Source: Thermoanaerobaculia bacterium
Lineage (GTDB): Bacteria > Acidobacteriota > Thermoanaerobaculia > UBA5066
Direction of reading: 5' to 3'
DNA: 46,698 nucleotides
Assembly: GCA_963816185.1 (NCBI GenBank)
Contig: CAWFJJ010000012.1
Span: 1-46,698, forward strand
In this document: piece after piece, positions 3,348 through 45,663 of the stretch
How positions within the stretch are numbered: the first letter of the stretch is position 1
Layout: every line of letters starts with the position of its first letter
The notes under the pieces: model-generated
The model's database searches: none
Seen by the model: only the letters and a program-made list of their open reading frames with translations
Told to the model about the DNA's origin: nothing
Translations under genes and position numbers: made by a program

Positions 3348-4457
3348 ATGGGAACCAACGTACCGCATATGAGCTCAGAGGGCAGTCCGATACCGGTACG
3401 CGGTCTCGACCAAGACGCCGCTGAGGTCGCGCTGGGGCCGGATCCCGGTGTGACGGAGACGGAGAAGGTCGCGTCGTTGTTCGCCGAGATACTTGGGCTA
3501 GAGCGGGTTGGAGGCGGGGACGATTTCTTCGACCTCGGGGGGACCTCGATGGACGCAGAGGAGGCGATCAATCGCCTGTCGGAGATCTTCGGCCGGCAGC
3601 TCGAAACGGCGGAGTTCTTGCGGACCCCGACGCCTGCCGCCCTCGCCCTACGGATGACGGGACCGCCTCTGCAGGCGGCCGACCCGCTCGTCCCTCTCCG
3701 GCGGGGCCTCGGCCTGCCCGTTTTCCTCTTCCCCGCTCCCAACACAGGAAGCCTCGTCCGCCTCGCTCACTGGAGGCTCGTACATCGGGTGGTAGAGGAC
3801 CGCCCGTTTCTCGCGTTCGACCCGTGCGAGAGCGCCCTGCTCCCGACGTCCGACCTCGCGGAGGTGGCGCTGCGGACGCTTCGGACGGCCCAGCCCCGAG
3901 GACCGTACGCCCTCGTGGGGGAGTGTGCTGCCGGCATCCTCGCCTGGGAGATTGCGCGCCGGCTCTCAGAGGAGCAAGAGCGTGTCGATCTTCTCGCTCT
4001 GATCGACTCCCCTTGGCGGCCTTATTGGGGGCGGCGGCCGAGAGGCCCGTTCCGTTGGAATCCGGCTCGGTGGCGCGGCGACCTCGTCCATCGAGTCGGA
4101 CGTCACCTCCACACGTTGCGCGGCCTCTCCGTGGAGAAATGGCCGGTGTACTTGTGGGAGAAAGGCGTCGCCGCCCGAGCGACATGGCGGAGGGTCCGCA
4201 GCCCCGAGATCGCGGAGCGGCGACACCGCCGGGAGCGATACGCCGAGGCCCTCGGCGCTATACCTCCCAGACCATGGCCGGGTCGTCTTCGTTTCGTCCA
4301 GAGCGCCGATCCGCTGCACCGGCACGACGCCGAGGGTTGGGCGACACTGGCTGAATCGTTTGAGGTCGTCCGTGTCCCGGTCGAGCACAGAGTGTTGCTC
4401 GGCGGCCACGTGGAGCTCGTGGCGGCGACTCTGTCAGGCTGGCTCCGCCAGACCTGA
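3348..4457 (+). CDS. Stand-alone carrier protein (PP-binding) + thioesterase didomain
   Basis: DDFFDLGGTS phosphopantetheine site. AQPRGPYALVGECAAG..LALIDS..EH thioesterase fold. Start uncertain (3348 or 3369). Confidence 0.8.
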   Translation: MGTNVPHMSSEGSPIPVRGLDQDAAEVALGPDPGVTETEKVASLFAEILGLERVGGGDDFFDLGGTSMDAEEAINRLSEIFGRQLETAEFLRTPTPAALALRMTGPPLQAADPLVPLRRGLGLPVFLFPAPNTGSLVRLAHWRLVHRVVEDRPFLAFDPCESALLPTSDLAEVALRTLRTAQPRGPYALVGECAAGILAWEIARRLSEEQERVDLLALIDSPWRPYWGRRPRGPFRWNPARWRGDLVHRVGRHLHTLRGLSVEKWPVYLWEKGVAARATWRRVRSPEIAERRHRRERYAEALGAIPPRPWPGRLRFVQSADPLHRHDAEGWATLAESFEVVRVPVEHRVLLGGHVELVAATLSGWLRQT

Positions 4458-4485
4458 CACCAGCGGAGACTGTTCTCTCTCGAGT

Positions 4486-4675
4486 TGTAGTGGCGCAATG
4501 GGCGTGGCTGCGACCGAATTTGGCCGGCTTCGCGAGATTCGCTGGAATGTAGGGGTGCAATGGGAATTGCCGGGGGCTGTAGGGGCGCAATGGGAATTGC
4601 CGGGGGCATATAGCGCATGAAACCCTTGCCATTCTGCCGACTTCTCGTCTCCGCCGAAGCATTTTGATCCCGGCA
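4486..4675 (+). repeat. Degenerate R30 (4486) plus R30 doublet (4548, 4578) and variant leader
   Basis: Two copies at an exact 30-bp period. The leader GCGCATGAAA..TTTTGATCCCG is shared with 23178. Confidence 0.9.
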
Positions 4676-4676
4676 G

Positions 4677-5458
4677 GCCCTGCTCCTCAGGATGACGCGT
4701 GAGGCTGCCGAAATCCTCGGGGCGCCATGGGACAAGGTCCCCGAACGCCAGCGCCCGCAATACGTGCCCGAGCAGCGCTTTCGGATCCTGCACATTCGGA
4801 GTTTCCTCGGGCTCTCGCAGCGCGAGACAGCTGAGATGTTTCGAGTGTCGGTCGAGACGATCGCACGGTGGGAGATGGAGACAACGAGCGCGGACGGCGA
4901 GGCCCCACGTCCCCTGGTTGCGCCGAATCCTCCCGTCCGGCGCTTCGCCGACGTGGTCAGGGCCGTCGTGAAGACGATGGAGCTGGCTGGCTTCGGAGGA
5001 AATGACCTAATCGCACGAACGCTGGCCCGTGCGGGCTGGAAGCTGTCGGCGAGGACTGTGGGGCGGATCCGAAAGGGGGGTTGGCCAGCGCCCCGTGTGC
5101 GGGAGAAGGCCTCGACGGTTCCGCGAGCCGTTAAGGCAAAGCGCCCGAATCACGTCTGGATGGTGGATCTGACCGACGTGAAGGAGCTCTTCGGGATCGT
5201 GACGTTCAAAATCGCGGTCGTGTTCGATGCGTTCTCGCGGATGCCGCTCTCGGCCAGGGTGTTTTCCAAGGAGGCCTCTGTCCTTGAGATCGCCCGGTTC
5301 GTCGCGAAAGCCGCGCCCTTCATGCGCTCTTTCCGGTCAACGGCAGGCGGCAGTTCTTCGGCCCTGTCCGCCCTCCTGCGCGCCTCACACCTTTTCGGCC
5401 TTGCCCTCGGCTCGGCGCTCGGTCGGCTCCGGGAATCGGGGGCGACGGCTGCGGCGCG
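4677..5458 (+). pseudogene. Scrambled DDE (rve-like) transposase fragments of the R30 element
   Basis: HTH LGLSQRETAEMFRVSVETIARWE and RPNHVWMVDLT..FDAFSR up to ~5315, then a restart of the N-terminus (ATG 5322, LLRASHLFGLALGSALG). Homologous to 45705-46698. Confidence 0.85.
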
Positions 5459-5508
5459 CACGCCTTACGCGGGTGTCGTCGAGAGCGACGCCTTTGGCGG
5501 TCGCATCG

Positions 5509-5892
5509 TCACGGCTTCTGACTGATGAAGAGTTTGTTGCCGTAGAGATCCTCCAGTTGCACGCCCGTCCCCCACGGACCCGATTGTGGCTCGCCGAGGA
5601 ACTGCACGCCGAGAGGCTTCATCCGCATGTAGTCGCCAATGCAGTCGGATGTGTCCAGCCCCAGGAGGGCGTGACTGCCGGCTTGCTTGCCCACCAGCGC
5701 CTTGTCCTCGGCGGTCTTGGCGAGCTCGAGCGCGAGGGTGAACTCCCGGTTCTTCGGCAGCGAAATCGTGACCCAGCGACCTTCACCGAATGGCTTGTCC
5801 TCGATGAGCTCGAAGCCGAGCTTCAGCGTGTAGAACTCGATAGCCGCATCGTAGTCGTGGACCAGCACGCTAATGATCTTGACCTTGTTCAT
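5509..5892 (-). CDS. VOC / glyoxalase / bleomycin-resistance family protein
   Basis: SVLVHDYDAAIEFY..KLGF and PWG..EDLYGN motifs. Confidence 0.9.
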   Translation of the reverse strand: MNKVKIISVLVHDYDAAIEFYTLKLGFELIEDKPFGEGRWVTISLPKNREFTLALELAKTAEDKALVGKQAGSHALLGLDTSDCIGDYMRMKPLGVQFLGEPQSGPWGTGVQLEDLYGNKLFISQKP

Positions 5893-6955: not shown

Positions 6956-7112
6956 TGTAGGGGCGCAATGGGAATTGCCGGGGGTCTTGTGGCGCGTAGA
7001 GACGAGGGTCACCCCACCGGTACCTTCATCAAACCCGCCCCGAGGACGGGCATTCTGGTCCGGACCGGGCCCTTCATGCACTCTTCTCGGCCGCTGCGAG
7101 GCGGCAGTCCCG
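6956..7112 (+). repeat. R30 left end plus full leader plus first codons of the transposase (ATG 7076)
   Basis: TGTAGGGGCGCAATGGGAATTGCCGGGG..GACGGGCATTCTGG..TTCATGCACTCT. Confidence 0.9.
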
Positions 7113-7201
7113 GCCATTCTGTCGGAGGCCGTTCGCTCGACCTGGTAGCTCTTCCCGTGCTCCTGAGCGCGGGAAACGCTGGTCTCCGAGCGCCAGGACG
7201 T

Positions 7202-7228
7202 GCCGCAATTCCCATCGCGGCCCCAATA
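7202..7228 (-). repeat. Degenerate inverted R30
   Basis: GCCGCAATTCCCATCGCGGCCCC. Confidence 0.6.
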
Positions 7229-7272
7229 GTGTTCAAAACCTGACCGCCTCCTACCTTGAAGCGCCGATATGT

Positions 7273-7301
7273 TTGACAGACCTCGAATTCCAACCTATGT
7301 T
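7273..7301 (+). promoter_or_regulatory. Sigma70-type promoter of groESL
   Basis: TTGACA (7273-7278), 17 bp, TATGTT (7296-7301). Confidence 0.75.
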
Positions 7302-7302
7302 T

Positions 7303-7329
7303 CTGGCACTCACCCGGTGAGACTGCTAA
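7303..7329 (+). promoter_or_regulatory. CIRCE element (HrcA operator)
   Basis: CTGGCACTC-N9-GACTGCTAA versus consensus TTAGCACTC-N9-GAGTGCTAA, upstream of groES. Confidence 0.85.
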
Positions 7330-7402
7330 TTAGAGCGCCGGGGAGTAACACAAACAACGAGGGCATCGGACGCCCCCGCAGTCGACTGAAAGGAGTCCGA
7401 AA

Positions 7403-7696
7403 ATGAAAGTTCGTCCCCTCTACGACCGGATTCTCGTCAAGCGCATCGAGCAGGAAGAGCAAAAGCGCGGCGGGATCATCATCCCCGACACCGCCAAGGA
7501 GAAGCCGATGGAGGCCAAGGTCGAGGCCGTCGGCGAAGGCAAATTCGACGACAACGGCAAGCGGATCCCGCTCGACGTCAAGAAGGGCGACCGAATCCTG
7601 ATCGGCAAGTACGCCGGCACCGAGATCAAGATCGAAGACGACGAGTACCTCATCCTCCGTGAGGACGAAGTGCTCGCGATCGTCGAGACGAAGTAA
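7403..7696 (+). CDS. groES: Co-chaperonin GroES
   Basis: [42 protein letters not shown]. Confidence 0.98.
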
Positions 7697-9352
<1,656 letters not shown>

Positions 9353-9444
9353 GTCCCAAATCCCCCAGCTTTCGATTCTCTCGTTTCTCGACCCCGCATT
9401 CGCGGGGCCGACTTGTCCTCGGCGATCTTCGGCCCTTGCCGCCC

Positions 9445-9534
9445 TGTAGTGGTGCAATGGGAATTGCGGGGGGCCGTGGCGCGTAGTGACCAGGGCCACG
9501 CCCCGGCATCTTCCTCGATTCCGGCCCGCGGACG
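9445..9534 (+). repeat. R30 solo left end plus leader
   Basis: TGTAGTGGTGCAATGGGAATTGCGGGGGGCCGTGGCGCGTAG. Confidence 0.85.
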
Positions 9535-9989
9535 TCGCGTCGACGCGCTGGACGCGACGCCAGAAGACCCTGCGCCTGCTGCGGGCCTAAGTCCTGACGG
9601 CCCTAAGAGCCCGCACCCCTCGAGCGTAAGCCTGCCGACGTAGCCGTATCCCTCGGGGCTCAGTATCAAGACCTGGTCTCCGCTGGCGGTCTCCAGGAGG
9701 ATCGCCGCATCCCTCGACGGGTCGTAGCGTTCCACTGGCCGTTGTTACCAGCATCGCGGAGCCCGGATGAGGCTCGAGCCGAGCGGCAATCTCCGCCACA
9801 GTCTCGTAGCGTGCCTCGTCGTCACCCGTCCGAATGAGGCAGCCGCGACCGGCGATCTCGAAGGCTCGTCGGGCGTCGTCGATGGTATCGGCGATGTTCA
9901 CGGGCGGGGTCTGGCAGATTGCCTCCGGCGCCGCTGCGAATCTGGCAAGGGGCCTCTGCCCTACCGCGAAGGATGGAGGCCGTCTGGGT

Positions 9990-14206: not shown

Positions 14207-14502
14207 TGTAGGGGCGCAATGGGAATTGCCGGGGGCTTCGACGCGTAGAAACCGGGGCCGTAGACGGGCATTCTGGCCGGACGGGAGCCTTTCATGCGCT
14301 CTTTCCAGCCGCCGCGAAGTGGCATTTCTAGCCGTGCCGTCCCAGGCGCGACGGCGCTTTCCGCCCTGCTTCGCGCCTCGCACCTCTTCGGCCTCGCCCT
14401 CGGCTCGGCGCTCGGGAAGCTGCGCGACTCAGGTGTGACGGCGGCCAGGATGTTCGAAAGGGCCGAAGAGAGTGCCCTCCTCCTCAGGATGATGCGCGAG
14501 GC
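14207..14502 (+). mobile_element. R30 left end plus transposase N-terminal fragment (ATG 14294), cut by the next left end
   Basis: LLRASHLFGLALGSALG..LLRMMREA followed directly by TGTAG at 14503. Confidence 0.85.
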
Positions 14503-14565
14503 TGTAGGGGTGCAATGGGAATTGCCGGGGGGCTAAAGGCCGGGGCCGCACACGGGAGCTTCATC
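14503..14565 (+). repeat. R30 solo left end
   Basis: TGTAGGGGTGCAATGGGAATTGCCGGGGGG. Confidence 0.9.
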
Positions 14566-15312: not shown

Positions 15313-15450
15313 TGCAGGGCGGCAATGGGAATTGCCGGGGGCTGTAGGGGTGCAATGGGAATTGCCGGGGCTGTCGAGCGTAGAGACCAGACTCACGCCC
15401 CCCGTTTCCCTCTCAACCCCGGCCCGAAGGCGGGCATTCTGTCCGGACAG
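15313..15450 (+). repeat. R30 doublet (15313, 15343) plus leader
   Basis: Exact 30-bp period. Confidence 0.9.
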
Positions 15451-15489
15451 CGGTCTAGGTTCGAGTAATCGACCCTTTTCCTGAAGGAT

Positions 15490-15589
15490 CCCCGAGTGGA
15501 TGGCTCAAAGCGCGGTGGTCAGGGACTACCGGGTTCTCGAGGTCGGGCGGCGTCGGTCGAACCGTCTCATTCTAACTGTCGCGGGATGA
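15490..15589 (+). repeat. Second dispersed repeat family (~100 bp), copy 1 of 4
   Basis: CCCGAGTGGATGGCTCAAAGCGCGGTGGTC..GCGGGATGA. Other copies at 18633-18686, 23537-23636 and 24160-24260. Confidence 0.75.
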
Positions 15590-15661
15590 AGAGATTTCCT
15601 CGGCGGACGGGGCCCACGAGGTTCGAGATAAGCTTCAAGTAAGAAGACGGAACAGATCGAG

Positions 15662-18235
15662 GTGACGCTCTCCGCAGGCACTCGTCTCGGCCCTTACGAG
15701 ATCCTCTCGCCTCTCGGCGCGGGTGGGATGGGCGAGGTCTATCGCGCGCGCGACGAGAGGCTGAAGCGCGACGTCGCGGTCAAGGTCCTGCCTGCCTCGT
15801 ACTCGCAGGACGCCGACCGCCTGCGGCGCTTCGAACAGGAGGCGCAGGCGGCCGGGGCGCTGAACCATCCGAACATCACGGCGGTCTACGACCTCGGCAC
15901 CCACGACGGCGCGCCGTACATCGTGACCGAGCTCCTCGAGGGCGAGACGCTGCGCGCGCGGCTCGCAGGTGGCGGCCTCGCCATCCGCAGGGTGATCGAC
16001 TACGCCGTCCAGATCGCAAGGGGCCTCGCCGCGGCGCACGAGAAGGGAATCATCCACCGTGACCTCAAGCCCGAGAACGTTTTCCTTACAAAGGATGGGC
16101 GGATCAAGATCCTCGACTTCGGTCTCGCGAAGCTCACGCAGACCGAAGGGCTAGGCGGTCCGCAGACGAACCTTCCGACGGCGACAGCCGGCACCGAGGC
16201 CGGCGTCGTGATGGGGACCCTCGGCTACATGTCGCCGGAACAGGTGAAGGGGCACCCGGCCGACCAGCGGTCGGACCTCTTCTCCTTCGGCGCGATCCTC
16301 TACGAGATGCTGTCGGGGAATCGCGCGTTCCACCGCGATTCGGCGGCCGAGACGATCTCAGCAATCCTCCGCGAGGAGCCGCCAGACCTCTCGGCGACTA
16401 ACCAGAACATCCCGCCCGGTCTCGACCGCATCGTGAGTCACTGCCTGGAGAAGTCACCCGGGTCCCGCTTCCAGTCCGCCGGCGACATCGCTTTCGATCT
16501 CGAATCGCTGGCCACCGCTCCGGCCGCCGTGTCGGGAGGCGTGATCCGCCCGGCGAGGCGGCGGCTCGGGTGGCGGGCCGCTGCCGGGCTCGCTCTGGTT
16601 GTGGCATCGGCCGCCGCCTTTTTCTGGGGCACGCGCGCGAGCCGCAACGAACGGCTGGGCTTTCACGCCTTCACGTTTCGCCGCGGCACGATCCGCTCCG
16701 CTCGGTTCGCGCCCGACGGCCACACGATCGTTTACGGGGCCGCGTGGCAGGGCGCGCCGATCCGGCTCTTCTCGGCGAGCACGGAACATCTCGAATCGGC
16801 TGCGATCGCGCTCCCCGATGGCGACATCTTCGCGATCAACTCCGGCGGCGAGCTTCTGATTTCCTTGGGCCGCCACTACCTGACAACCCATCACAGCGTC
16901 GGGACCCTCGCGCTCGCTCCCCTTTCGGGGGGCGCTCCGCACGAAATCCTCGAGAACGTCCAGGCGGCGGACTTCGGACCGGACGGAAGGAGCTTTGCCG
17001 CCATCCGCGAGGTGGAGGGGAAGAACCGCCTGGAGTACCCGCTCGGAACGGTTTTGTGCGAGACCGTCGGCTGGATGAGCCACCTGCGCGTTTCACCGCG
17101 AGGCGATCAGGTCGCCTTCTTCGACCACCCCGACCGATGGGACAACCGGGGAGCGGTCGCGGTCGTCGACCGACAGGGACACAGGAAGACGCTGACGCAG
17201 ATCTACAACAGCGAAGAGGGCCTCAGCTGGTCGCCCTCTGGAGACGAGATCTGGTATTCGGCCGGATTTGGACTCGGGGGAGATTCCGTTCTGGCGGTGA
17301 CGCCGGCCGGGAAGACGCGGGTGGTCTACCGCGGTCTTGGCGACATGGCCATCTTCGATTGCGCGCGGGATGGCAAAGTGCTGCTGAGCCGGGCTCTCAA
17401 CCAGCGAGAAATGATGTTCGGCCGGTCCGAAGAAGCCCGGGAGCGCGACCTCTCCTGGTTCGACTGGTCTTATCCGATCGACATGCTCGCCAGCGGCGGT
17501 GCCATCCTCTTCTCCGAGACCGGGCTGGGCGCGGGCTCGACGTATGGCGTCTTCATCCGCCGGACGGACGGCTCCCCGGCGGTTCGCATCGGGGACGGAA
17601 ACCCCCTGTCCCTGTCGCCGGACGGCAGGTTTGCCATCGCAAAGACACTCACGAGCCCACCCCAGATCGTTCTCCTGCCAACCGGCGCCGGCGAGCCGAC
17701 GATGCTGCCCTTCGGAGCCGTCGAGGGCGATCAGGCCGCCTGGTTTCCCGATGGCCGCCGGATTCTCCTGGAGGGACACGAGGCGGGCCATGGCGCGCGG
17801 CTCTACGTGGCCGGAGCGGATGGAGGATCCGTCCGGCCGATCAGCGGAGAGGGCGTCCGGATCAATGGCTCGAAGCCGGTCTCGCCCGACGGCATGTCCG
17901 TCACGGCGACCGGCCGCGACGGAAGGTCTTACATCTATCCCGTCGATGGGGGTGAGCCGCGCCTGATACCCGGCCTTTCCGAAGACGACGAGATCAGCCG
18001 CTGGACATCCGACGGAATGTCGCTCTACGTCTTCCGCCACGGCGAGCTTCCGGCGAAAGTCGTGCGCCTGAATCTCGCGACGGGAAAACGCGAGCCGTGG
18101 AAGGAGGTGCTGCCCAGCGATCCTTCCGGAGTCGTCACGATTACTCCGATTCTGCTGACACCGGATGGGAAAAGCTATGCATACAGCTATCCAAGAATCC
18201 TCTCGCAGCTCTTCCTCGGCACAGGTTTGAAATGA
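15662..18235 (+). CDS. Ser/Thr protein kinase with TM segment and TolB-like (PD40) beta-propeller
   Basis: [23 protein letters not shown] and YMSPEQ motifs. Repeated SPDG/WSP motifs. Confidence 0.95.
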
Positions 18236-18237
18236 CC

Positions 18238-18334
18238 TGTAGGGGTGCAATGGGAAATTGCCGGGGTTGTGGTGCGCAGAGAAAAGGGCCACGGCCATCC
18301 GCCAGATGGCGGTTTTGGTTCGAGAAACCGAGCC
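18238..18334 (+). repeat. R30 left end 2 bp after the kinase stop
   Basis: TGA-CC-TGTAGGGGTGCAATGGGAAATTGCCGGGG. Confidence 0.85.
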
Positions 18335-19856: not shown

Positions 19857-19905
19857 TGCAGGGGTGCAATGGGAATTGCGGGGCGCTACGGCGCGTAGAA
19901 GCCAG
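19857..19905 (+). repeat. R30 solo left end
   Basis: TGCAGGGGTGCAATGGGAATTGCGGGG..GGCGCGTAGAA. Confidence 0.85.
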
Positions 19906-20106
19906 TGTTATGCCCTGGGGCGACAACCTCCGTGCGCATTCCGGTCCCCTGACGGCTTCCCTCGCCGCCTCGGAACGAGCTGCTCGAAACGATGCAGCAC
20001 CGCATCGAAATGAGACAGCTCAAAGCGGAATTCGCCAGCACGAGGCGCCTCAGACCGCCTCTCAGGTAACGGCACAGCGTTTGCTCTCCCGTCGGTCGGC
20101 CACAGC

Positions 20107-23147: not shown

Positions 23148-23375
23148 TGTAGGGGCGCGATGGGAATTGCTGGGTGCTGTAGGGACGCAATGGGAATTGT
23201 CGGGGGTGTGCGGCGCATGAAAGTGGCACCTTCTGCCTGTTTCTCGTCTCGGCCGGGCGTTTTGATCCCGCCTGTAGGGTGCAATGGGAATTGCCGGGGG
23301 CCTGTGGCGCGTAGAAACCAGAGTCACGCCCTCGGTTTCTTCCTCAATCCCGCCGCGTAGACGGGCATTTTGGCC
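23148..23375 (+). repeat. R30 doublet (23148, 23178) plus a third left end (23273)
   Basis: Starts 3 bp after the epimerase stop. Confidence 0.9.
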
Positions 23376-24013: not shown

Positions 24014-24275
24014 TGTAGGGGCGCAATGGGAATTGCCGGCGGCCGTGGCGCGTAGAGACCAGAGTCACGCTCTCGGTTTCTTTCTCAATCCCGCCCCGCA
24101 GACGGGCATTCTGGCTGGACGGCGGTTTAGGTTCGAGAAACCGACCCTTTCTCGAAGGATCCCCGAGTGGATGTCTCAGAGCGCGGTGGTCCGGGACTGC
24201 CGGATGCTAGAGGTTGGATGAAGGCGGGCGAACTGTCTCGTGCTAACGGTCGCGGGATGAGGAGCTTGCGGCGAC
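24014..24275 (+). repeat. R30 left end plus leader plus second repeat family, homologous to 15343-15610
   Basis: Same order of blocks as at 15343. Confidence 0.85.
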
Positions 24276-24399
24276 CGAACCCTATCTTGTCGTCGGGAGC
24301 CGTTGCTGCGGGTGTTGGTTCGAGAAGCAGCCTGAAGAGCAGTCACGAAAACTCAGCGAGGTGCAATGGAGTGGGCCGACGTGTGCGCGTCGAGAAAGG

Positions 24400-24463
24400 A
24401 GCCGAGGACGTGACTCTGATCTCTGTCCACCACAGCGTCCCGCAATCCCATTGCACCACCTCA
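24400..24463 (-). repeat. Degenerate inverted R30 left end
   Basis: GTGACTCTGATCTCT..CCGCAATCCCATTGCACCACCTCA. Confidence 0.65.
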
Positions 24464-24527
24464 GTAGCTCGCCGGAGACGCGCTCGCCCATCTAGGGCAA
24501 TAATCGGCCGGACTCCTGAGGCAAGAC

Positions 24528-26306
24528 GTGCAGAAAAGCGAATCTAAGACGGACACGCAACCCATCCGCGCCGAGAAAGGACGTCGGGCATCGGGCGTCA
24601 CGCGGCGGCCGGCGTCCCTCCTCATCGACTCCCCGGACCCCACGGCTCTCTTCGGCCGCACGGGCCGTGTCCTTCTCGCCAACGAGGCCGCGCTCGCCGA
24701 GGGCACTCCCAGCCCGGGCAACCTCGAGGAGGCACCCGGAAGCTCGCCGCCATTCTGGCTCACGCCGCCCGGGCGTGACAGCCTCATCGAGGCCACCGCG
24801 AGGCCCGGGGGAGCGAAGAACTTCGAGGTTCGGATCCCGGCCGGACCCGAATCAGGCGAGCGCGTGTTCTGGGTGACGACGCGCTTTACCTCCCGGGCGG
24901 CCGAAGGGGGATTTCTGGCCGTGGCGCGCGAGGTGACGGGAGTCGCTAGCGAGAAGCTCCGCGCCGAATCAGCGGACACCGTGACCGAGCCCGCTGATGC
25001 GCTGACGGGCTTCGCGCACCGCGAGCAGTTTCGCTTCGAACTCGAGCGCGAGATCGCCCGCGCGGACCTTTTCGGACGGCCCCTCTCGCTCATCGTCATC
25101 GGGCTCGACAACTTCAAGACCTTGAACGACACCCACGGGCTTCTCGCTGGAGACGAGTACCTCCGATCCATGGCCAATATGCTTCGCGGCACGCTCCTGG
25201 GCGGAGAGACCGCCGGGCGCGTTGGCGGTGACGAGATCGCGATCCTGCTTCCCGGTGCCTCCGCCGTCGAAGCCGCGCCGCGCGCCGAGACCGTCATCGC
25301 CCTCATTCGCCGGATGGCGCCCATCTGGGAGGGCAACGCGCTCACACTGACCGCGAGCGCCGGAGTCGCCGTGTTCCCGGATCACGCGGGCGGCGCCTCG
25401 GACCTATTTCTCGCGGCGGACCTCGCGATGCATCAGGCGAAGCGCCGCGGCGGTGGGCGCGTGCGCCTTCACGACCCGTCGGATCGCGAGCGAGACCGCA
25501 CCGGCCGCCTGCGCGAGCAGTCGGACCGCATTCGTGCGTCTCTCGCCGAGTCGCGCTTCGTCCCGTACTTTCAGCCCGTGGCCGAGGTTGGAAGCGGCCG
25601 CATCGTGGCGGTGGAGACTCTCGCCCGGATGCGCGAGCCAGATGGAAGTATCACGCTTCCCGCCGAGTTTCTCGGAGCCGCCGAGCGCTTCGGGATCGTG
25701 ACCTCGATAGACCGCGCCATCATCGCGGCCGCGTTCGACAGCCTTGCCGCAGCCCGTAAGCGCATCAGCCCCGAGCTTGAGATCGGCATCAACCTCTCGG
25801 GCCTGGACTTCGACGACGACACGCTCGTCGCCGACATCTCGCGGATGGCCCGGGCCAAGGGCATCCGCCCCGAGCGCGTCACGTTCGAGATCACCGAGAC
25901 CGCCGCCCTGCGCGACTTCGACCGCGTGCGGGATTTCACGCTCGCGCTCACCGGAGAAGGCTTTCACTTTGCGCTCGACGACTTCGGCATGGGCTTCTCT
26001 TCCTTCCGCTATCTCCGTGAGTTGCCCGTCTCCTCTCTCAAGCTCGACATCAGCTATGTGAGGGACCTTCCGAAGGAGCAGGCGAACCGGGTCTTCGTGC
26101 GGGGCATGGCGAGCATCTGCCGCGGCCTCGGCGTCAAGACCGTGGCCGAAGGCGTGGAATCGAAAGAGGTCATGGATATCCTCCCCGAGCTCGGTGTGGA
26201 CCGGGCGCAGGGCTGGCACGTGGGCTACCCCGAGCCCGGCCTCCCTCTCCCCGTGGTCGATGTGGACTCGAGCCAACCGCTCCCGCGGCGATACCGAAAC
26301 CTGTAG
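24528..26306 (+). CDS. PAS-like + GGDEF + EAL c-di-GMP turnover protein
   Basis: DALTG, DNFK..NDTHG..GD, RVGGDEI; YFQP, ETL, FEITE, DDFG and VAEGVE. Its TAG stop lies inside R30. Confidence 0.92.
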   Translation: MQKSESKTDTQPIRAEKGRRASGVTRRPASLLIDSPDPTALFGRTGRVLLANEAALAEGTPSPGNLEEAPGSSPPFWLTPPGRDSLIEATARPGGAKNFEVRIPAGPESGERVFWVTTRFTSRAAEGGFLAVAREVTGVASEKLRAESADTVTEPADALTGFAHREQFRFELEREIARADLFGRPLSLIVIGLDNFKTLNDTHGLLAGDEYLRSMANMLRGTLLGGETAGRVGGDEIAILLPGASAVEAAPRAETVIALIRRMAPIWEGNALTLTASAGVAVFPDHAGGASDLFLAADLAMHQAKRRGGGRVRLHDPSDRERDRTGRLREQSDRIRASLAESRFVPYFQPVAEVGSGRIVAVETLARMREPDGSITLPAEFLGAAERFGIVTSIDRAIIAAAFDSLAAARKRISPELEIGINLSGLDFDDDTLVADISRMARAKGIRPERVTFEITETAALRDFDRVRDFTLALTGEGFHFALDDFGMGFSSFRYLRELPVSSLKLDISYVRDLPKEQANRVFVRGMASICRGLGVKTVAEGVESKEVMDILPELGVDRAQGWHVGYPEPGLPLPVVDVDSSQPLPRRYRNL

Positions 26307-27480: not shown

Positions 27481-27493
27481 CGCTGGTCCCCAT

Positions 27494-27517
27494 GGCGCAA
27501 TGGGAATTGCCCGGGGC
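27494..27517 (+). repeat. Partial R30 lacking the TGTAG tip
   Basis: GGCGCAATGGGAATTGCCCGGGGC, 13 bp after the tube gene stop. Confidence 0.75.
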
Positions 27518-27650
27518 TACGGAGGATAGAAAGCGCCTCCTCGCGGAAGGCCGGGCGAAGGCCCGATGAAACTCCCGTTTCGCGTCGAGTATCTAGATGC
27601 GGCGGTGCCGGTGCTCATGTGGCAGCGTTTCAGCGCACCGAGCGCAGCGG

Positions 27651-28121: not shown

Positions 28122-28165
28122 TGCAGGGGCGCAATGGGAATTGCCGGGGGGCCTGCGGCGTACCA
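28122..28165 (+). repeat. R30 solo left end
   Basis: TGCAGGGGCGCAATGGGAATTGCCGGGGGG. Confidence 0.9.
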
Positions 28166-31359: not shown

Positions 31360-32142
31360 GCTTTCCCTCCTTTTCCGCGGCCTTAAGGCGCCGCAAGCAA
31401 GGGACATGGACGCTCTCTCTGGTGAACAAGGCAAGGTAAACCAGAGGGCGACCCAACCGGTCAGAGTGGCCCGAAAGGCCCGCCAATACGGTCGACGGCG
31501 CGCTTTTCTCGCGCGACGTTGGCCCACATCGCGGCGTCTCGGGAGAGGCGAGTAAATAACCCTGGGTCATTTATGAACCGCAGCGTTGGCGCGAGAAAGG
31601 GCACTCCGGGGCAGGCTCGATCGACTGGATTAAGTGTCCATTAGTCAGTCGCTTCGCCAGGTCGTGATCGGATTCGCCGAGGTCGTTTTCAACCGCGCAT
31701 GCGCTCGAAAATGACCCCCCTGAGGTGGGTTCTTTACTCGCTACCTGGGGTCCCTGAAAACCGCGTCAACCAGTCTCTGGCGCTCTCGACAAGAACCGCC
31801 CTGAGAGAGCGGCTCGCGGGGCCTGAAGGGGGCCGTCCGGAAGTCTCGGTGCTCTCAGTTCGACCCGTCACAGGATCGACAAGGAGTCACCTCTTCCTTT
31901 TTAGGGCGTGCGCTGGGTTCGGGTCAACCGCGCCTGCTTTGCTTTCGCGGGGAAGTTGTATGGCTCCCCACTCGGTCGGCTAGGCGAACTGTTCTCAGGT
32001 CACAATCTGAGAACTTCAAATGCTCTCAGGACAAGATCCTCTTCGGATGGAAGCGGTTGCGGCGCACACGTCCGGTGACGCCGAATAGTGCCACCCCAGA
32101 TGAAATGGCGCGAGGCCTGCGCTCCCGAGTCCGCAAACCAGC

Positions 32143-32335
32143 GCCAGCCGCAATTCCCATTGCGCCCCTACAAGTGGCCGACGCGTGTGCGCTCGGCAGG
32201 CGAACGACGATGAACCCATTCGTCTGTTCGCGCCAGGGCAAGCCGCAATTTCCATTGCGTCCCTACACTTCCGGATCCTTCGCGTCAGGAAGGGTCTCGG
32301 CCTGTCGCAACGCGAAATGGCCGAGCGCCCCTACA
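32143..32335 (-). repeat. Three stacked R30 right ends (tips at 32172, 32267, 32335) with a transposase HTH sliver
   Basis: CAGCCGCAATTCCCATTGCGCCCCTACA and variants. FRILRVRKGLGLSQREMAE at 32269-32325. Confidence 0.85.
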
Positions 32336-35402: not shown

Positions 35403-36073
35403 CGTAGGGGTGCAATGGGAATTGCCGGGGGCTCTGGCGCGTACAGACCAAGGTTTCGCCCTCTGAATCCGGTCTCGAAAACGGGCATTCTGGCCGGACA
35501 GGAGCCCTTAATGCACTCTTCCCGACCGCCGCGAGGCGGCAGTTCTCCAGCGGCGCTGCCCGCCCTCCTGCGCACGGCTGCGCCTCACGCGAACGTCGGC
35601 TGTAGGATCAGACGCTCTCCCACTTCATTAGGAAGGAGTTCGGCACGAGGGCTACAACGCTGCGCGGTGGACGCTGAAGGACATGCTCGGGCTGCGCCTC
35701 CTGCGGCCGATCGTCGCGGAAGACCTCGCCGCGACGGTCGAAATGGGCCTCGTGCACTACGCCCATTTCCGCCCGCACCAGGGCCTCGGCGGGGCGACGC
35801 CAGCTGAGGTCTACTTCGGACGCGCTCCGTCGCACCTGTCAGCGATCCCGCCTCCTCGCGGCAGGCCGGGTGAAGGTCGGAAGGACTCGCCGTTTCGCAT
35901 CGACTACCTAGACGCGGAGCGGCTACTGCCAGTTCTGGTTCGAAAAGCAGCCTAAACGGGCGATTACCGGGGGCGAGCGCCGGTCGACGTGTGCGCGTAC
36001 GAAGGTGTCGCGACCGCCGAGACGCGGGTCTGTGCGCGCCAACGGCAGCCGCAATTCCCATTGCGCCCCTACA
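35403..36073 (+). mobile_element. Internally deleted R30 element with both ends
   Basis: Left end at 35403, transposase start at 35511, C-terminal fragment 35669-35955 (Y..RPHQGLGGATPAEVY..LVRKAA), right end ..CCCCTACA at 36073. Confidence 0.88.
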
Positions 36074-40262: not shown

Positions 40263-41615
40263 TGTGCCTCGCCAGAATCCCATAGGGTGTCCAAACGGGG
40301 GCGTACGTACTTCAGCCGATTGAGGTTCCTTCGCTCCCCGGGCCGGCCTGCTCTGGCTCGTATCCTCCCAGCATGCTCGGCTTGATTCGACTCTTCCTGG
40401 GGTCCCTCGTCGCCCTCCTTCGCCCTCAGGCCGCACTCGTGGCCGAGAACTTCGCGCTGAGGCATCAACTCGGCGTCCTCCTGCGGTCGAGGCCCGCCCG
40501 TCTTCCCCTTACTTCGTGGGATCGAGCCCTCTGGGCCTTCGCCCTTCAGCGCTTCCCCGGGTGGCGGCAGAGGCTGGTCATTGTCAGGCCCGAAACCGTC
40601 ATCGCGTGGCATCGTCAGGCGTTTCGACTCTTCTGGAGATGGAAGTCGCAGGCCGGGCGACCGAGAGCTCATGCCGAGGTCCGGAGGCTCATTCGGGAGA
40701 TGGCCTCAGACAACCCGACCTGGGGTGCGCCCCGAATCCACGGCGAGCTTCTTAAGGTCGGTTTCGACGTGAGCGAACGGACGGTCTCCCGATACCTCGA
40801 ACGGATCCGACCAGAACCTCGAAGGACCGGATCTCAGACCTGGAGCACCTTCCTGCGCAACCAGGCCAAGGGCATCGTCGCCGTCGACCTGTTCACTGTG
40901 CCCACGGTCAGATTTCAGGTTCTTTACGTCTTCGTTGTTCTGGCACTTGAACGCCGGCGTCTGGTCTTCGCGAACGTGACAACGAACCCAACTTCATTCT
41001 GGCTCGGCCAGCAGACGATCAATGCCTTCCCCTGGAAGACGGCGCCCAGATTCCTGATCAGAGATCGCGATAGGGCATATGGAAACGAGTTCTCCCGCCG
41101 AGTCCGGGATCTCGGCATCCGTTCCATCAAGACCGCTATTCGCGCCCCGAAGATGAACTGCTACGCCGAGCGCCTCATCGGTACGATCCGCCGCGAACTG
41201 TTCGACCACGTCATCGTGTCGAGTGAGCGTCACGCGAGGCGGCTGCTTCAGGAGTTCCAGGTCTGGTACAACGAGGACCGCCTTCATCTCGCTCTCGAGA
41301 AGGACGCTCCTGATCACAGGCCCATCGAGCCGCCCGAGATGGGCGAGGTCATCTCGCTACCTCGTCTCAGCGGTCTTCATCACCGGTACTCGCGGCGCAC
41401 AGCCTGAAGCCAGGGGCGTCTACGGCGGTACTCCGACGGCCCTGCCATGCCGTCCGACTAAACCTTGATCCAGACGGTCCGCTTCCTCTTCACGAAAACC
41501 ATGGAGAGCCGCCGGCCGCAGAGCCTTCAGTCGACATCGATAATGCAGGTTGCCAGCCTCCTCAAGGACGGTTCTGTTACATCCCGAGCCCCCGCTGCGA
41601 TTTTGGCGATCCACA
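40263..41615 (+). mobile_element. Second IS481/IS3-like element with TGT...ACA ends
   Basis: 17-bp imperfect inverted repeats TGTGCCTCGCCAGAATC (40263) / GATTTTGGCGATCCACA (41599-41615), 14/17 match. Confidence 0.7.
40373..41407 (+). CDS. Integrase-core (rve) DDE transposase
   Basis: NPTWGAPRIHGEL, AVDLF, IRDRD, N.YAER..GTIRRE, YN..R.H and GLHHRY. Confidence 0.93.
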   Translation: MLGLIRLFLGSLVALLRPQAALVAENFALRHQLGVLLRSRPARLPLTSWDRALWAFALQRFPGWRQRLVIVRPETVIAWHRQAFRLFWRWKSQAGRPRAHAEVRRLIREMASDNPTWGAPRIHGELLKVGFDVSERTVSRYLERIRPEPRRTGSQTWSTFLRNQAKGIVAVDLFTVPTVRFQVLYVFVVLALERRRLVFANVTTNPTSFWLGQQTINAFPWKTAPRFLIRDRDRAYGNEFSRRVRDLGIRSIKTAIRAPKMNCYAERLIGTIRRELFDHVIVSSERHARRLLQEFQVWYNEDRLHLALEKDAPDHRPIEPPEMGEVISLPRLSGLHHRYSRRTA

Positions 41616-41667
41616 CCCTGGTTTCTACGCGCCACAGCCCCCCGGCAAGTCCCATTGCACCCCTACA
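41616..41667 (-). repeat. Inverted R30 left end
   Basis: CTACGCGCCACAGCCCCCCGGCAAGTCCCATTGCACCCCTACA. Confidence 0.85.
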
Positions 41668-43523: not shown

Positions 43524-43744
43524 AGCAACTGCTGGGCGCGCGTGACGGGCTGCCCCTCGTTCGGAGATCTGTCGTGCTGTCCCGCTAGCGGACGTCGACG
43601 GCGTCAGCCTTCGCCGCCGAGCCGAGGCCGATGATGACCGTTCGGTCGCTCACCGAGGGATAGCCATCGCCGTCCGAGACCTCGTCGACGCGCTTCTAGA
43701 ATGCGCATTTCGGGAAGGGGTCAAGAATGTTCATTCGAGGGGTC

Positions 43745-44003: not shown

Positions 44004-44135
44004 GACGGACGAATCCTATCATCGCATTCTGGAGCTCGATGCTGCCCCAGACGTCTTCCGGGGCCTAGGCCGGCGCGGCCTTTCCGAACGTCTCCGTGAC
44101 CGTGAGCGTGAGGACGCACTCGAGAAGGAGCATGC

Positions 44136-44300
44136 TGTAGTGGCGCAATGGGAATTGCCGGGTCCTATAGGGGTGCAATGGGAATTGCCGGGGGCCTGTG
44201 GAGCGTGAAACCGGAGCCATTCTGTCTCTTTCTCGGTGCCGCCGAGGTGTCTTGAACCCGCCCGGTAGACGGGCATTCTGGCCCGGCGGGGCCTTTCATG
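44136..44300 (+). repeat. R30 doublet (44136, 44166) plus leader
   Basis: Exact 30-bp period. Leader ends CCTTTCATG. Confidence 0.9.
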
Positions 44301-44348
44301 TTTCTTCGTCGGCTAGAATGCCTCTCGATTTCGAAGAGGAGAACGAAC

Positions 44349-45050
44349 ATGAACGATCGTCTTCGGCACCGGCCCGCCGCCGTTGTTTTCGCGTGCCTAC
44401 TCGTCGCTGGTTGCCGCAAGGGTCCAGAAACGGCTGCCCCGGTGACGAGCAGTCCGGCGGTGAACTCTTCGGCGCCCGCACCGGCCCCCGTCGCGGCGTC
44501 CCCCGGAAACACTGAGGCTGGTCTCGGAGGAGCCGGGGCGGAGACCACGGCGAAGATGGCAGGCGCTGAATGGGCGCTCAAGCAGGACGCCATCAAGAAC
44601 GATCCCGACGGCCAGTGGGCCATCCAGGCCAAGGCATCCTCGTCCTATAACGATGCTCAAGGCGCCGCGGCATGGTCGGCCAATCAGGCCACTGGCGCAC
44701 CCAACGTAGAGAAGTACGGAGACGACGGGAGGGCCTGGGCACCGAAGACCCCAGATGGCGGCATCGAATGGTTGGAGCTGACATTCCCGAAACCGATCTT
44801 TGCCACTGAAGCGCGAATCCGCGAATCCTGTGGATCGGGCGCCGTCATCAGGGTGGAACTCTTCGACGAAAAGGGCACGCCTCACGTGGTCTGGGCAGGC
44901 AACGACCCGACCAAGGACCTGAACTACCTCCTCCTTAAGTTCGCGAAGACGACCTACAAGACTGACCGCATCAAGGTCACGCTCGCGACAAACGTCGTGC
45001 CTGGCTGGAACGAAATCGACGCCGTACAACTCGTCGGCAAGGAGAATTGA
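44349..45050 (+). CDS. Lipoprotein with discoidin/F5-8-like domain
   Basis: Lipobox VAGC. QWA..A.ASS.Y, AW.P..EWLEL.F and WNEIDAVQL.G. SD GAGGAG. Confidence 0.8.
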   Translation: MNDRLRHRPAAVVFACLLVAGCRKGPETAAPVTSSPAVNSSAPAPAPVAASPGNTEAGLGGAGAETTAKMAGAEWALKQDAIKNDPDGQWAIQAKASSSYNDAQGAAAWSANQATGAPNVEKYGDDGRAWAPKTPDGGIEWLELTFPKPIFATEARIRESCGSGAVIRVELFDEKGTPHVVWAGNDPTKDLNYLLLKFAKTTYKTDRIKVTLATNVVPGWNEIDAVQLVGKEN

Positions 45051-45159
45051 TCCATTCGTCGTGCGCTCATAACGACGCGATTCGCGAGCTCCAGAATGGT
45101 CTGAACCTGCAGGCCCTGCTGCTATCATGAGCCGCATCGCGAGAAGGAGGGATCTGATC

Positions 45160-45663
45160 ATGACGCTTCCGAGACGGACGGTGTTTGTCTTCGAGTGTGC
45201 GATGGCCGTATTGATGGTGGCCGCGCCGGCCTCCGCTGCCCCAAGCACGTACTACAACCACGGCAAGCCTGTCGCACTGACGGATTCGTACGCGTGCACC
45301 GAAGACGACATCCTCAACGACGGCAAACTCATCACGGTGGTGGCGTTCTCGAACGGCCCGATGGACAAGGCCGCGCTCAAGGCGGCAGCCAATCCATGTC
45401 GTGAGCTGACCCACCAGGTCGGCAAGGGCTTCACCACGCTGGTCGAGCTGAAGATCAAGTACGACGGCACGCCCTACAACGTCCAGGTGTTCGACGCCGG
45501 CGGCACGCACTCGCGCACCGACGCGGCGAACCTCAAGCTGACGAAGAACGATGGCAAGCGCATCGAGGGCGCGTACGCGACAAGAAACGCATCGGCCGAA
45601 CGCTCGCCCAATACCGAGGCCTTCGACCTGACGTTCGCGCTCGGCGTGGAGCCGTCGAAATAG
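45160..45663 (+). CDS. Secreted hypothetical protein
   Basis: Signal peptide ..ASA-AP. SD AAGGAGG. TAG stop overlaps a TAGGGGC end remnant. Confidence 0.75.
   Translation: MTLPRRTVFVFECAMAVLMVAAPASAAPSTYYNHGKPVALTDSYACTEDDILNDGKLITVVAFSNGPMDKAALKAAANPCRELTHQVGKGFTTLVELKIKYDGTPYNVQVFDAGGTHSRTDAANLKLTKNDGKRIEGAYATRNASAERSPNTEAFDLTFALGVEPSK

Follow-up and report, generated by a model that had tools for sequence, protein, structure and literature searches.

Solo ends and truncated copies of an IS481/IS1202-like insertion sequence behind genes on a contig of a soil acidobacterium

Results

Layout of an IS-packed contig

The window, by which we mean the whole stretch of 46,698 nt analysed here, is a complete contig. 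It is crowded with truncated copies of one insertion sequence (IS), with MITEs (short elements in which both ends are kept) and with solo left ends. The ends and the genes associated with them are as follows.

1905..1969, plus strand: solo left end, about 60 nt
4486..4515, plus strand: degenerate tip behind the thioesterase gene
4548..5315, plus strand: left end in which the 30-nt end repeat stands twice in tandem, followed by a truncated transposase gene
6956..7227, plus strand: MITE, left end and degenerate right end
7250..9425, plus strand: additional groES-groEL copy that has a promoter, a CIRCE-like operator and a terminator of its own
9445..9535, plus strand: solo left end, about 90 nt
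14207..14502, plus strand: left end and transposase leader, cut by the next tip
14503..14532, plus strand: solo left end, about 30 nt
15313..15607, plus strand: double-tip left end with a shared leader module (also at 24014-24278)
15662..18235, plus strand: Ser/Thr kinase gene
18238..18296, plus strand: solo left end, about 59 nt
19857..19919, plus strand: solo end of about 63 nt that interrupts an FmdB-type zinc-ribbon gene some 13 codons in
23148..23375, plus strand: double-tip left end, then a further left end at 23273
24014..24463, plus strand: short derivative of 450 bp with left end, shared leader, IS 3' region and degenerate right end
24467..26301, plus strand: captured GGDEF-EAL segment
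26302..26405, plus strand: left end, about 104 nt, with TAG at 26304-26306
27488..27602, plus strand: degenerate left end fused to an internal fragment from the IS 3' region
28122..28150, plus strand: solo left end of 29 nt that interrupts a DUF4386 gene on the minus strand
32138..32267, plus strand: two right ends (outer ends 32172, 32267)
35403..36073, plus strand: internally deleted derivative of 671 bp, both ends present
41615..41667, minus strand: left-end type repeat in opposite orientation
44136..46698, plus strand: double-tip left end, two passenger ORFs, then the IS minus its first ~40 nt, with the transposase gene running off the contig

Among the 26 ends in the window, 22 point the same way and lie upstream of the transposase gene at the contig end, and in the window genome solo left ends greatly outnumber right ends. 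Three elements (6956-7227, 24014-24463 and 35403-36073) have both IS ends, lack a transposase gene and are well under 1 kb in length, as is characteristic of MITEs. At the loci of G009 and G013 left-type and right-type ends are about equal in number, the island of G003 holds whole IS copies with both ends, and the copies on contigs C6 and C12/C29 carry passenger DNA between the left end and the transposase gene. Positions 40267-46698 of the window repeat the end of C29 with 97.4% identity. Two further genes in the window, at 29516-30817 and 33844-34989, encode a large serine recombinase and an IS110-family transposase respectively; a Pfam search of 69 window ORFs found no tyrosine-recombinase integrase domain, which an integron would have beside its array, only those of the serine recombinase and of IS110-type and rve transposases. 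The flank of the end at 1905 was considered as a transposase and rejected, as it is a repeat also present in C28, with homology ending at 1904.

The tip and its transposase

The terminal inverted repeats of an IS481/IS1202-like IS, which has no name and is about 1.5 kb long, have the tip TGTAGGGGYGCAATGGGAATTGC as their outer end; the IS encodes one rve-type DDE transposase of 413-427 aa (about 420 aa). That the tips are IS ends is near certain. On C6 (85427-87526) they flank the transposase gene as an inverted pair with 5'-TGT...ACA-3' termini, the two ends being identical over their first 23 nt in inverted orientation, and full-length pairs were also found in G013 and G009. The ends are made of a 30-nt unit, tandem in some copies, whose inner box contains the short palindrome GCAAT-GGGA-ATTGC; a comparison of the repeats with Rfam gave no match. 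Within the genus the repeat is present in 0 to 107 copies per genome and its copy number tracks the rve transposase gene, while it was absent from all 16 genomes of other genera that were searched.

The C6 transposase is a single ORF of 427 aa with Pfam rve and rve_3 domains. Its best NCBIfam match is the IS481 model with 95.1 bits, below the curated cut-off of 224. Assignment to the IS3 family, in which two overlapping ORFs are joined by a -1 frameshift, was rejected since only a single ORF is present in the C6 copy and in its database relatives, and the score against the IS3 model, 76.7 bits, does not reach the cut-off of 160. Scoring of 8,000 candidates yielded 478 relatives at E<=1e-10, ranging from 354 to 453 aa; those with names are called InsO-family, DDE-type or putative transposases in their sources. 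The right-hand transposase copy of the window is split over two frames.

Distances between tips and genes

A reading of the sequence alone had proposed that the tips sit precisely at gene 3' ends or cut genes. Most of the distances it gave could be confirmed, namely 2 nt for the kinase (stop 18233-18235, tip 18238), 3 nt for the epimerase (stop 23142-23144, tip 23148), 28 nt for the thioesterase (stop 4457, degenerate tip 4486), 31 nt for the Cys protein (ORF 13843-14175, tip 14207), 60 nt for the cytochrome c (stop 15252, tip 15313) and 92 nt for groEL (stop 9352, tip 9445), where the gap contains a terminator-like hairpin. The 13 bp given for the tube gene have to be corrected, as what was taken for a tip at 27494 is no more than the inner box of an end that has degenerated and would start, in register, at 27488, 7 nt past the stop. 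Likewise, the TAGGGGC at the stop of ORF 45127-45663, taken for a remnant of a tip, is internal left-end IS sequence (about position 40-50). The four described cuts are real: at 14503 a transposase leader is severed, at 19857 only 13 of 41 positions of the Zn_ribbon_8 profile are left, at 28122 the last third of the minus-strand DUF4386 gene is left, and at 24014 the second copy of a 99.6% duplicate (23218-23472 and 23758-24013) is severed. Right ends, like left ends, were also found behind stops.

A sharp outer joint and a ragged inner edge

The tip had further been taken to mark one boundary of each unit through a precise reaction, and for the tip this was supported. It forms the outermost part of the inverted repeat of an IS with a DDE transposase, and the base preceding TGT is the last one with homology to IS-free orthologues. 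For the kinase compared with G016, and for four chromosomal genes of G000 compared with their G009 and G013 copies, homology ends exactly at the tip. Such a sharp edge at TGT fits what would be expected of a transposase strand-transfer joint. The inner edges of solo ends are ragged (29, 40, 48, 57, 63, 90, 104 and 135 nt, in a range from 29 to about 150 nt). In one pair of copies the cause can be seen: window positions 1964-2254 match 26578-26867, in one case behind a 57-nt end and in the other behind a 104-nt end, which amounts to a plain deletion. Later deletions probably account for the remaining inner edges.

The junctions of the window recur in G009 (86%) and G003 (95%). Kinase plus tip is common to G009, with different DNA behind the 60-nt end, the thioesterase-tip junction is found in G003 at 95% identity with an intact tip, and G003 and C6 have thioesterase-plus-tip and end-plus-cargo units in common with the window. 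Short contigs of the sequencing runs X1 and X2, which may include the source sample, span 18238, 19857, 24463-24467 and 26302 with 0-2 differences; an X2 short-read contig covers 18224-18496 with no difference, and an X2 contig covers 26152-26700.

Cargo genes

The cargo segments between IS remnants are extra, diverged copies of genes present in every genome of the genus (groESL, GGDEF-EAL, kinase). The additional groES-groEL copy is 92% identical to the copies of other species and 90.5% to the C1 copy of its own genome, and is flanked by the two-ended derivative 6956-7227 on the left and the end at 9445 on the right. The GGDEF-EAL segment, with native homology from 24467 to 26301, begins within the final 12 codons of the gene that natively lies upstream and runs as far as the native stop; it is bounded by a degenerate right end (~24463) on the left and a left end (26302) on the right. 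It thereby lies between the outer tips of two co-oriented IS-derived elements, the arrangement of a compound transposon. A left tip alone does not define such units, as both of these segments have a right end or two-ended derivative on the left and a left end on the right. No GGDEF-EAL compound unit was found at a second site with its own duplication; all other copies in the genus are native and IS-free. As had been read from the sequence, the GGDEF-EAL gene uses the TAG at 26304-26306 inside the tip as its stop, in place of the native TGA, and its C-terminus is changed by the tip from ...RYRP* to ...RYRNL*.

Closeness to stops and a TG at position -10

Compared with random placement, tips are in excess near stops in the window and in three genomes. 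In the window, 3 of 19 non-tandem ends are located -5 to +3 nt from a strictly called stop, as against 0.29% of random positions (P = 2e-5); for ends behind a gene only, the fraction is 3/8 (P = 0.02). G000, G009 and G013 together have 17 of 176 ends within -5 to 12 nt of a stop compared with 0.51-0.57% of random positions (P = 6e-16), or 14/173 after merging of shared flanks. Restricted to gene-downstream ends, 17 of 44 lie within 12 nt of the stop where 16% are expected (P = 3e-4; with merged flanks 14/41, P = 0.003), and six independent ends lie exactly 7 nt behind it. Neither the near-stop excess nor the spike at +7 was replicated in other assemblies (1 of 46 ends) or in the related G003 island (0 of 26), so that closeness to stops does not stand as a general property of the family. 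Ends 13-100 nt downstream of genes are reproducible (27-29 of 176, and 13 of 46 in other assemblies, vs 3% of random positions). Near-stop ends (within 12 nt) are no commoner among solo ends (10/115) than among paired ends (7/61), which argues against pure survivorship.

A TG is present exactly 10 nt outside the joint in 52 of 176 ends, compared with 0-15 at 28 other offsets. This share of about 30% is reproducible, with 18 of 58 ends in other assemblies (vs 0-7), or 21 of 75 with the exact pattern. Left and right ends both show the TG at -10, and it is also present in flanks that are themselves IS-derived (14503, 23273).

Target duplications and empty sites

IS481-type elements normally make a target duplication. 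No duplication of 1-40 bp was detected in 34-35 facing pairs, five of them full length; these pairs may be recombinant, which makes this weak evidence. No empty site was found for 81 pairs, and TG/CA on both sides occurs in only 2 of 35 pairs. The observations that would have spoken against a precise boundary, missing gene halves together with target duplications, were looked for and not found.

Discussion

We consider the observation mostly real and largely ordinary mobile-DNA biology, with an unusual landing-site signature. The contig would be an accretion island of full copies, internally deleted two-ended derivatives and solo ends, mostly in one orientation, and the cargo between them would consist of extra, diverged gene copies from the same genus. 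The sharp TGT edge would be the strand-transfer joint of the transposase and the ragged inner edge the product of later deletions, whereas segments between a right end and a left end may be compound transposons whose IS copies have decayed. Two reasons could explain why tips lie behind genes: the transposase may prefer sites where a TG, in many cases that of the TGA stop, lies 10 nt (one helical turn) beyond the joint, and insertions that destroy useful genes would be lost. If a joint coincides with a stop codon, TGTAG may provide its TAG as the new stop, as in the GGDEF-EAL gene. We regard this account as a whole as likely; selection that spares whole ORFs is plausible, and for the two reasons given for the closeness to stops the chances of being right are about even. 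Against the account stand the missing target duplications and empty sites, the unreplicated near-stop excess, the finding that near-stop ends are no commoner among solo than among paired ends, the rarity of TG/CA on both sides and the fact that no compound unit was seen to move as a whole. The surplus of solo left ends over right ends in the window genome is likewise something that simple decay does not predict.

The distances might also arise from random insertion of which intergenic cases persist, short distances then reflecting short intergenic spacers. The reproducible 13-100 nt class, the unreplicated near-stop class and the P of only 0.02 in the conditional test of the window would suit this idea, but survival alone cannot produce a TG at -10 that is present even in IS-derived flanks, and the 17 of 44 gene-downstream ends within 12 nt and the six ends at exactly 7 nt are at odds with it; we think it unlikely, if worth keeping in mind. 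Integron-like capture, in which a left end and its adjoining DNA form a cassette that moves by one-ended transposition or recombination into an array upstream of one transposase gene, would agree with the co-directed ends upstream of the transposase gene, the kinase-plus-tip unit whose following DNA differs in G009, the units common to G003 and C6, the passenger DNA in C6 and C12/C29 and the lack of detected target duplications. The scattered inner edges (29-135 nt) nevertheless offer no single crossover point, degenerate right ends lie left of two cargo segments, left and right ends are about equal in G009 and G013 with whole two-ended copies in the G003 island, and right ends too occur behind stops, which together leave such capture rather improbable.

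The inner-box palindrome and the serine recombinase and IS110-family genes of the window could suggest that the repeats are not transposon ends but xrs-like or attC-like sites of one of these enzymes. We give this hardly any credence, as several genomes have the rve transposase gene flanked by inverted pairs of the repeats, whose copy number tracks that gene, while the recombinase genes are single and do not adjoin most repeats, and Rfam gave no match. It is equally far-fetched that the contig is an assembly chimera, put together at repeats within a metagenome bin: the genome is indeed a 30-contig bin with 3.4% estimated contamination, its cargo genes duplicate core genes and one end repeats that of C29, yet the same junctions recur in G009 and G003, and four junctions of the window are crossed by X1/X2 contigs, from runs that may include the source sample.

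Read as an accretion island, the striking pattern is explained as the remains of one IS family, and annotation of that family in these soil Acidobacteria is now possible. Such a region would otherwise be misread by gene callers and binning tools, as duplicated core genes resemble contamination and IS ends alter C-termini. The island gathers additional chaperonin, signalling and envelope gene copies from related species, and is a clear example from nature of a stop codon contributed by an IS end. For learning how transposases of the IS481/IS1202 type gauge their target in helical turns, the reproducible TG at -10 and the lack of detected duplications offer concrete leads. As a speculation with a small chance of being right, the family may read a TG (often TGA) one helical turn off the joint, insert without target duplication, park at gene ends and package whole host genes between its ends, giving transferable arrays of housekeeping genes, a transposase-driven counterpart of integrons.

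Comparison with known systems

With the IS481 family, in which the IS1202 group is nested, the window IS shares a single rve-type DDE transposase with N-terminal helix-turn-helix, TGT...ACA termini and inverted repeats of <50 bp. It differs in its ends of 30-nt units, sometimes tandem, in an N-terminal extension of ~70 aa, in a score far under the family cut-off (95 vs 224 bits) and in that no target duplication was seen in 34 pairs. The co-oriented short elements also recall MITEs and solo ends of decaying ISs, of which the window has three two-ended examples and G009 and G013 many more, although solo left ends far exceeding right ends, co-oriented within one 46-kb stretch, set the window genome apart. 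Compound transposons and IS26-type arrays are co-oriented IS copies with cargo between them. The window resembles them in its cargo between co-oriented IS-derived elements, its whole genes copied from elsewhere and the absence of duplications at internal junctions; in contrast, its transposase comes from another family, only stubs remain of most IS copies, the cargo consists of housekeeping-type genes of the same genus, and no unit was seen to move.

For the IS481/IS1202 families, duplications of ~4-6, 15 or 25 bp, in steps of about one helical turn, are described (PMC10045372), and these steps recall the TG 10 nt outside the joint. The ISAba32 subgroup of IS1202 is reported to insert 5 bp from XerCD sites, and its copies without duplications are ascribed to recombination within the replicon (bioRxiv 10.1101/2022.12.17.520857). 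The window IS is similar in that a transposase of related type lands at a set short spacing from a sequence that can be recognised; it differs in having only a TG (often TGA) at -10 as its fixed feature, with no 28-bp site and no 5-bp duplication seen. In staphylococci, IS1272 has reportedly spread a second fabI gene (PMC4923244); that case concerns another IS family and a single gene under drug selection, but likewise links an IS to an extra copy of a core metabolic gene from a related species.

Insertion sequence ends in the window and in the genus

With a tolerance of 7 substitutions over 29 nt, we identified 26 copies of TGTAGGGGYGCAATGGGAATTGC in the window, 22 on the plus and 4 on the minus strand. 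The genome-wide count in the host genome (G000, 5.09 Mb in 30 contigs) is 52, with 24 copies on the window contig C12, 16 on C29, 6 on C6, 5 on C2 and 1 on C25. On C6 the repeat is present at 85427 and 87526 in inverted orientation, on either side of a single ORF encoding a 427-aa protein with rve and rve_3 integrase-core domains. Against the NCBIfam IS481 and IS3 models this transposase scores 95 and 77 bits (cut-offs 224 and 160, respectively). Among 8,000 candidates scored it has 478 relatives at E ≤ 1e-10, which stem mostly from metagenomes and, where named by the source, are InsO-family, DDE-type or putative transposases. Of the 24 further genomes from the genus, 15 carry the repeat (range over the genomes 0-107 copies). 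It was absent from all 16 searched genomes of other genera of the order, and is found in records mostly labelled Acidobacteria or Thermoanaerobaculia. An Rfam scan of the window, repeat included, gave no family match. The tip, i.e. the repeat starting with TGT, is therefore the outermost part of a terminal inverted repeat belonging to an IS481/IS1202-like insertion sequence (IS). The exact 23-nt tip is also present on contigs of 2-8 kb (L111, L118, L121, L149, L153, L156) from bins labelled Opitutaceae, Dormiibacterota, Tepidiformaceae and Myxococcales; these are either mis-binned acidobacterial contigs or cases of inter-phylum transfer.

At a left end the 30-nt unit, sometimes present twice, is followed by a variable stretch, a hairpin-like small box and the transposase start. 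Three short elements without the transposase gene are two-ended, as right ends are found at ~7227, ~24463 and 36073. The remaining plus-strand ends are solo stubs, in which IS homology is lost after 29 to ~150 nt.

Insertion sequence ends and derivatives in the window
4548/4578: left end with tandem 30-nt units
15313/15343: left end with tandem 30-nt units
23148/23178: left end with tandem 30-nt units
44136/44166: left end with tandem 30-nt units
32172: right end of a plus-oriented element, minus-strand match
32267: right end of a plus-oriented element, minus-strand match
36073: right end of a plus-oriented element, minus-strand match
41667: inverted left end, minus-strand match
~7227: outer limit of a degenerate right end
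~24463: outer limit of a degenerate right end
6956-7227: short two-ended derivative
24014-24463: short two-ended derivative
35403-36073: short two-ended derivative

According to a crude classifier that leaves many ends without a type call, solo left ends are far commoner than right ends in G000, and left and right ends are about equal in number at the loci of G009 and G013. The island of G003 contains whole IS copies with both ends present. At 26302 a 104-nt end is followed by cargo (26405-26867) in a unit shared with G003 and C6 at 88-89% identity, and at 1905 a 57-nt end is fused straight to the equivalent of 26578. The difference is a deletion, and the shortening of stubs can be followed in this one pair of copies. 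A second cut in the transposase leader was rejected for 1905, as its flank is homologous to C28 up to the tip.

The right-hand transposase at 45705-46669 lies in two overlapping frames (45705-46361 and, in the -1 frame, 46220 onward). The C29 copy (87%) is split likewise, and the C6 copy and database relatives are single ORFs; the split reflects either a frameshift mutation common to both copies or programmed frameshifting. Two conserved leader-like modules (15474-15607 and 24145-24278; 18495-18686) replace the transposase start after left ends. Each has three copies on C75 of G009 (L011), both are also found in G013 and G003, and they could represent a promoter or leader, a small RNA or a small ORF.

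The tip as an exact boundary

The sequence-only reading had proposed that a precise reaction sets the tip as one boundary of each unit. This is borne out, the reaction being transposition and the tips IS ends before which homology stops. The kinase gene of the window ends with AAATGACC followed at the joint by TGTAGGGG, as in G009 (86% identity over 2.4 kb). Its IS-free orthologue in G016 reads AAGTGACC followed by CGCAACCC, and homology is lost at the base preceding TGT. The same base is the homology boundary between 1905 and C28, and in four gene fragments of G009 and G013 homology breaks at TGT while the chromosomal homologues in G000 continue; the continuation of each of the four broken genes is absent from the IS-bearing contig. 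A true IS end 10 nt further out is ruled out, because the IS-free orthologues are homologous up to the base before TGT.

It had also been suggested that the TAG in the tip can supply a stop to captured ORFs, and this holds in one case, the GGDEF-EAL gene. Its native homology begins with a sharp edge at 24467, 3 nt past the degenerate right end and within the final 12 codons of the native upstream gene, and has an equally sharp edge at the stop. Native proteins end in ...RYRP or ...RPRP followed by TGA, and the window copy in ...RYRNL followed by TAG, so that its C-terminus is not native. The TG of the tip occupies the position of the native TGA, and the TAG of the tip therefore provides the stop.

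In a comparison with four sequencing runs, limited to short contigs, contigs of X1 and X2 bridge 18238, 19857, 24463-24467 and 26302 with 0-2 differences, although these runs possibly include the source sample. A joint of 18235 to 19860 in X6, a run of another study, was left out because one side measures 25 nt. Junctions shared with G009 and G003 are independent support for their reality.

Gene ends are not joined to the IS at tips only. Three genomes of the genus carry a single IS copy each (G014, L063 on C3; G020, L064 on C12; G021, L065 on C12) with an intact right end and without the left-end repeat, the truncated left end directly abutting the stop of a host gene. In G020 native CTG TGA AC has become CTG TAA CG in the IS-bearing copy, which is a duplicate spanning 6.6 kb or more (94-97% identity). 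The ORF ending at 45663 in the window has its stop in internal IS sequence. Gene ends therefore also abut the IS at non-tip sites, which points to deletion and selection acting beside transposition.

Position of the ends relative to TG dinucleotides and stop codons

We gathered 222 ends from G000 and the IS-rich contigs of G009 and G013, of which 176 were left after removal of identical flanks and second tandem tips. In 52 of the 176 a TG lies exactly 10 nt outside the joint, compared to 0-15 ends (mean 8) at 28 other offsets (P = 6e-28). TG at -10 is shared by left and right ends, and each of the three genomes has it. Among 58 ends from other assemblies 18 carry it (0-7 at other offsets), as do 21 of 75 exact tips taken from five genomes. 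The latter set overlaps the 58 ends, and roughly six of its 21 positives are tandem tips. The base after the TG is A in 24 of the 52 ends, and some 7-9 of these TGAs terminate a convincing ORF. As IS-derived flanks (14503, 23273) also carry TG at -10, it stems from the insertion and not from selection acting on genes. Host DNA outside the IS makes up the 10 nt between TG and joint.

The sequence-only reading had placed tips precisely at gene 3' ends, and we compared the stop-to-tip distances with random placement. ORFs were called strictly (≥80 codons, GC3-rich codon pattern); this misses real genes such as cytochrome c at 15313, and the counts are lower bounds in data and null alike. Ends at -5 to 12 nt behind a co-directional stop make up 17 of 176 in G000, G009 and G013 (P = 6e-16), against 0.51% of 19,983 random chromosomal positions and 0.57% of 19,137 positions in the same IS-rich DNA; with shared flanks merged, 14 of 173 remain (P = 2e-12). 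Among gene-downstream ends (-5 to 100 nt), 17 of 44 lie within 12 nt, where 16% are expected (P = 3e-4), or 14 of 41 after merging (P = 0.003). Restricted to the window, the count is 3 of 19 ends at ≤3 nt from a stop (P = 2e-5), or 3 of 8 given a gene-downstream position (P = 0.02). Seven ends, six of them independent, are exactly 7 nt behind a stop, which is TGA in six of the seven; the tube gene of the window joins this class once its degenerate end is set in register. The effect is present at both end types. Survivorship of solo ends wedged at stops is unsupported, since 10 of 115 solo ends and 7 of 61 ends of two-ended elements lie within 12 nt.

The excess stands in these three genomes; the very close class was not replicated elsewhere. 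In the replication set (58 ends at 48 loci in other assemblies, 46 with ≥300 nt of flank), a single one of the 46 ends falls within 12 nt behind a stop, its distance being 10 nt; none is at 7 nt, and 13 are at 13-100 nt. No end in the G003 island is nearer than 28 nt. The very close class is therefore concentrated in G000, G009 and G013, and the spike at 7 nt is rejected as a family-wide rule. What is reproducible is that ends prefer DNA lying 13-100 nt downstream of genes (15-16% and 28%, vs 3% at random). A keyword search of open-access literature found no IS landing at a fixed distance behind stop codons. The transposase may prefer sites with a TG at one helical turn's distance from the joint; where this TG belongs to a stop codon, the insertion would be harmless and persist, and such insertions would yield the class at 7 nt.

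Cargo and other content of the island

The segments between ends are additional copies of genes that the genus has elsewhere. The groESL segment (7403-9348), with its own promoter, CIRCE-like operator and terminator, is 92% identical to the single copies in G007, G013 and G003 and 90.5% to the copy on C1 of the host genome. The GGDEF-EAL gene is present in 29 of 29 genomes of the genus, the window copy sharing 90% identity with the G017 gene and 89% with the host genome's C30 copy. Other segments have 75-89% matches in C6, C25, C28 and C29. G003 harbors a 60-kb island with 26 ends within a 718-kb contig. Several of its units are shared with the window, including the thioesterase-plus-tip junction (95% identity).

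Further elements were noted in the island. 40267-46698 matches the terminal 6.4 kb of C29 (467352-460922) in inverted orientation with 97.4% identity; either the island edge has been duplicated in inverted form, or one locus was assembled twice because of strain variation. The IS also lies at or close to the ends of C29, C6 and C2, and these contigs are therefore probably pieces of one broken region. At 29168-31908 on the minus strand a DUF2924 gene adjoins the gene of a large serine recombinase, which has Resolvase, Recombinase and zinc-ribbon domains; the pair has copies at C29 427293-424496 (81%) and on C4 of G003 (88%). With a 29-nt left end at 28122 on one side and the right end 32172 on the other, the pair is placed like passengers of a non-autonomous element. 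Between the right ends 32172/32267 and the derivative at 35403 lies an IS110-family (DEDD) transposase gene (33746-34989), whose initial 366 nt are 99.5% identical to C1 434201-433836. Another IS is represented by a different rve_3-type transposase at 40373-41407 (344 aa; HTH_32, HTH_21). A 75-aa ORF with its upstream region (20101-20429) precedes a GT41-type glycosyltransferase; some 20 copies of it, at 75-85% identity, are found in C6 and C28. A repeat of 250-370 nt, unrelated to the IS ends and without Pfam match, occurs three times (1350-1769, 13251-13636 and, inverted, 27600-27871; 86-94% identity) and at C28 266760-267290.

Nature of the array and comparison with known insertion sequences

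No target duplication of 1-40 bp was found at 34-35 facing pairs, five of them full length; we searched 1-12 bp at the tips, 3-5 bp with boundaries shifted by -6 to +15, and 3-40 bp with mismatches. Likewise, we found no empty site, with the two flanks next to each other, for any of 81 facing pairs in G000 or the fetched loci. The array is most readily explained as an accretion island that is driven by the IS and made of decayed compound units; that it is a new cassette system is less likely. The original observation is largely correct as a whole. The reproducible TG at -10 and the absent duplications merit a bench test.

The IS of the window has the TGT...ACA termini of the IS481 and IS1202 families, described as typical of both in passages of PMC10045372. 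The same source mentions that reported duplications in members of these families step by ~10 bp, and by analogy a helical-turn ruler is thus plausible for this type of transposase. IS1202 copies without duplications are ascribed to within-replicon recombination by Siguier and co-workers (bioRxiv 10.1101/2022.12.17.520857), and the same process may account for the missing duplications in the IS family of the window.
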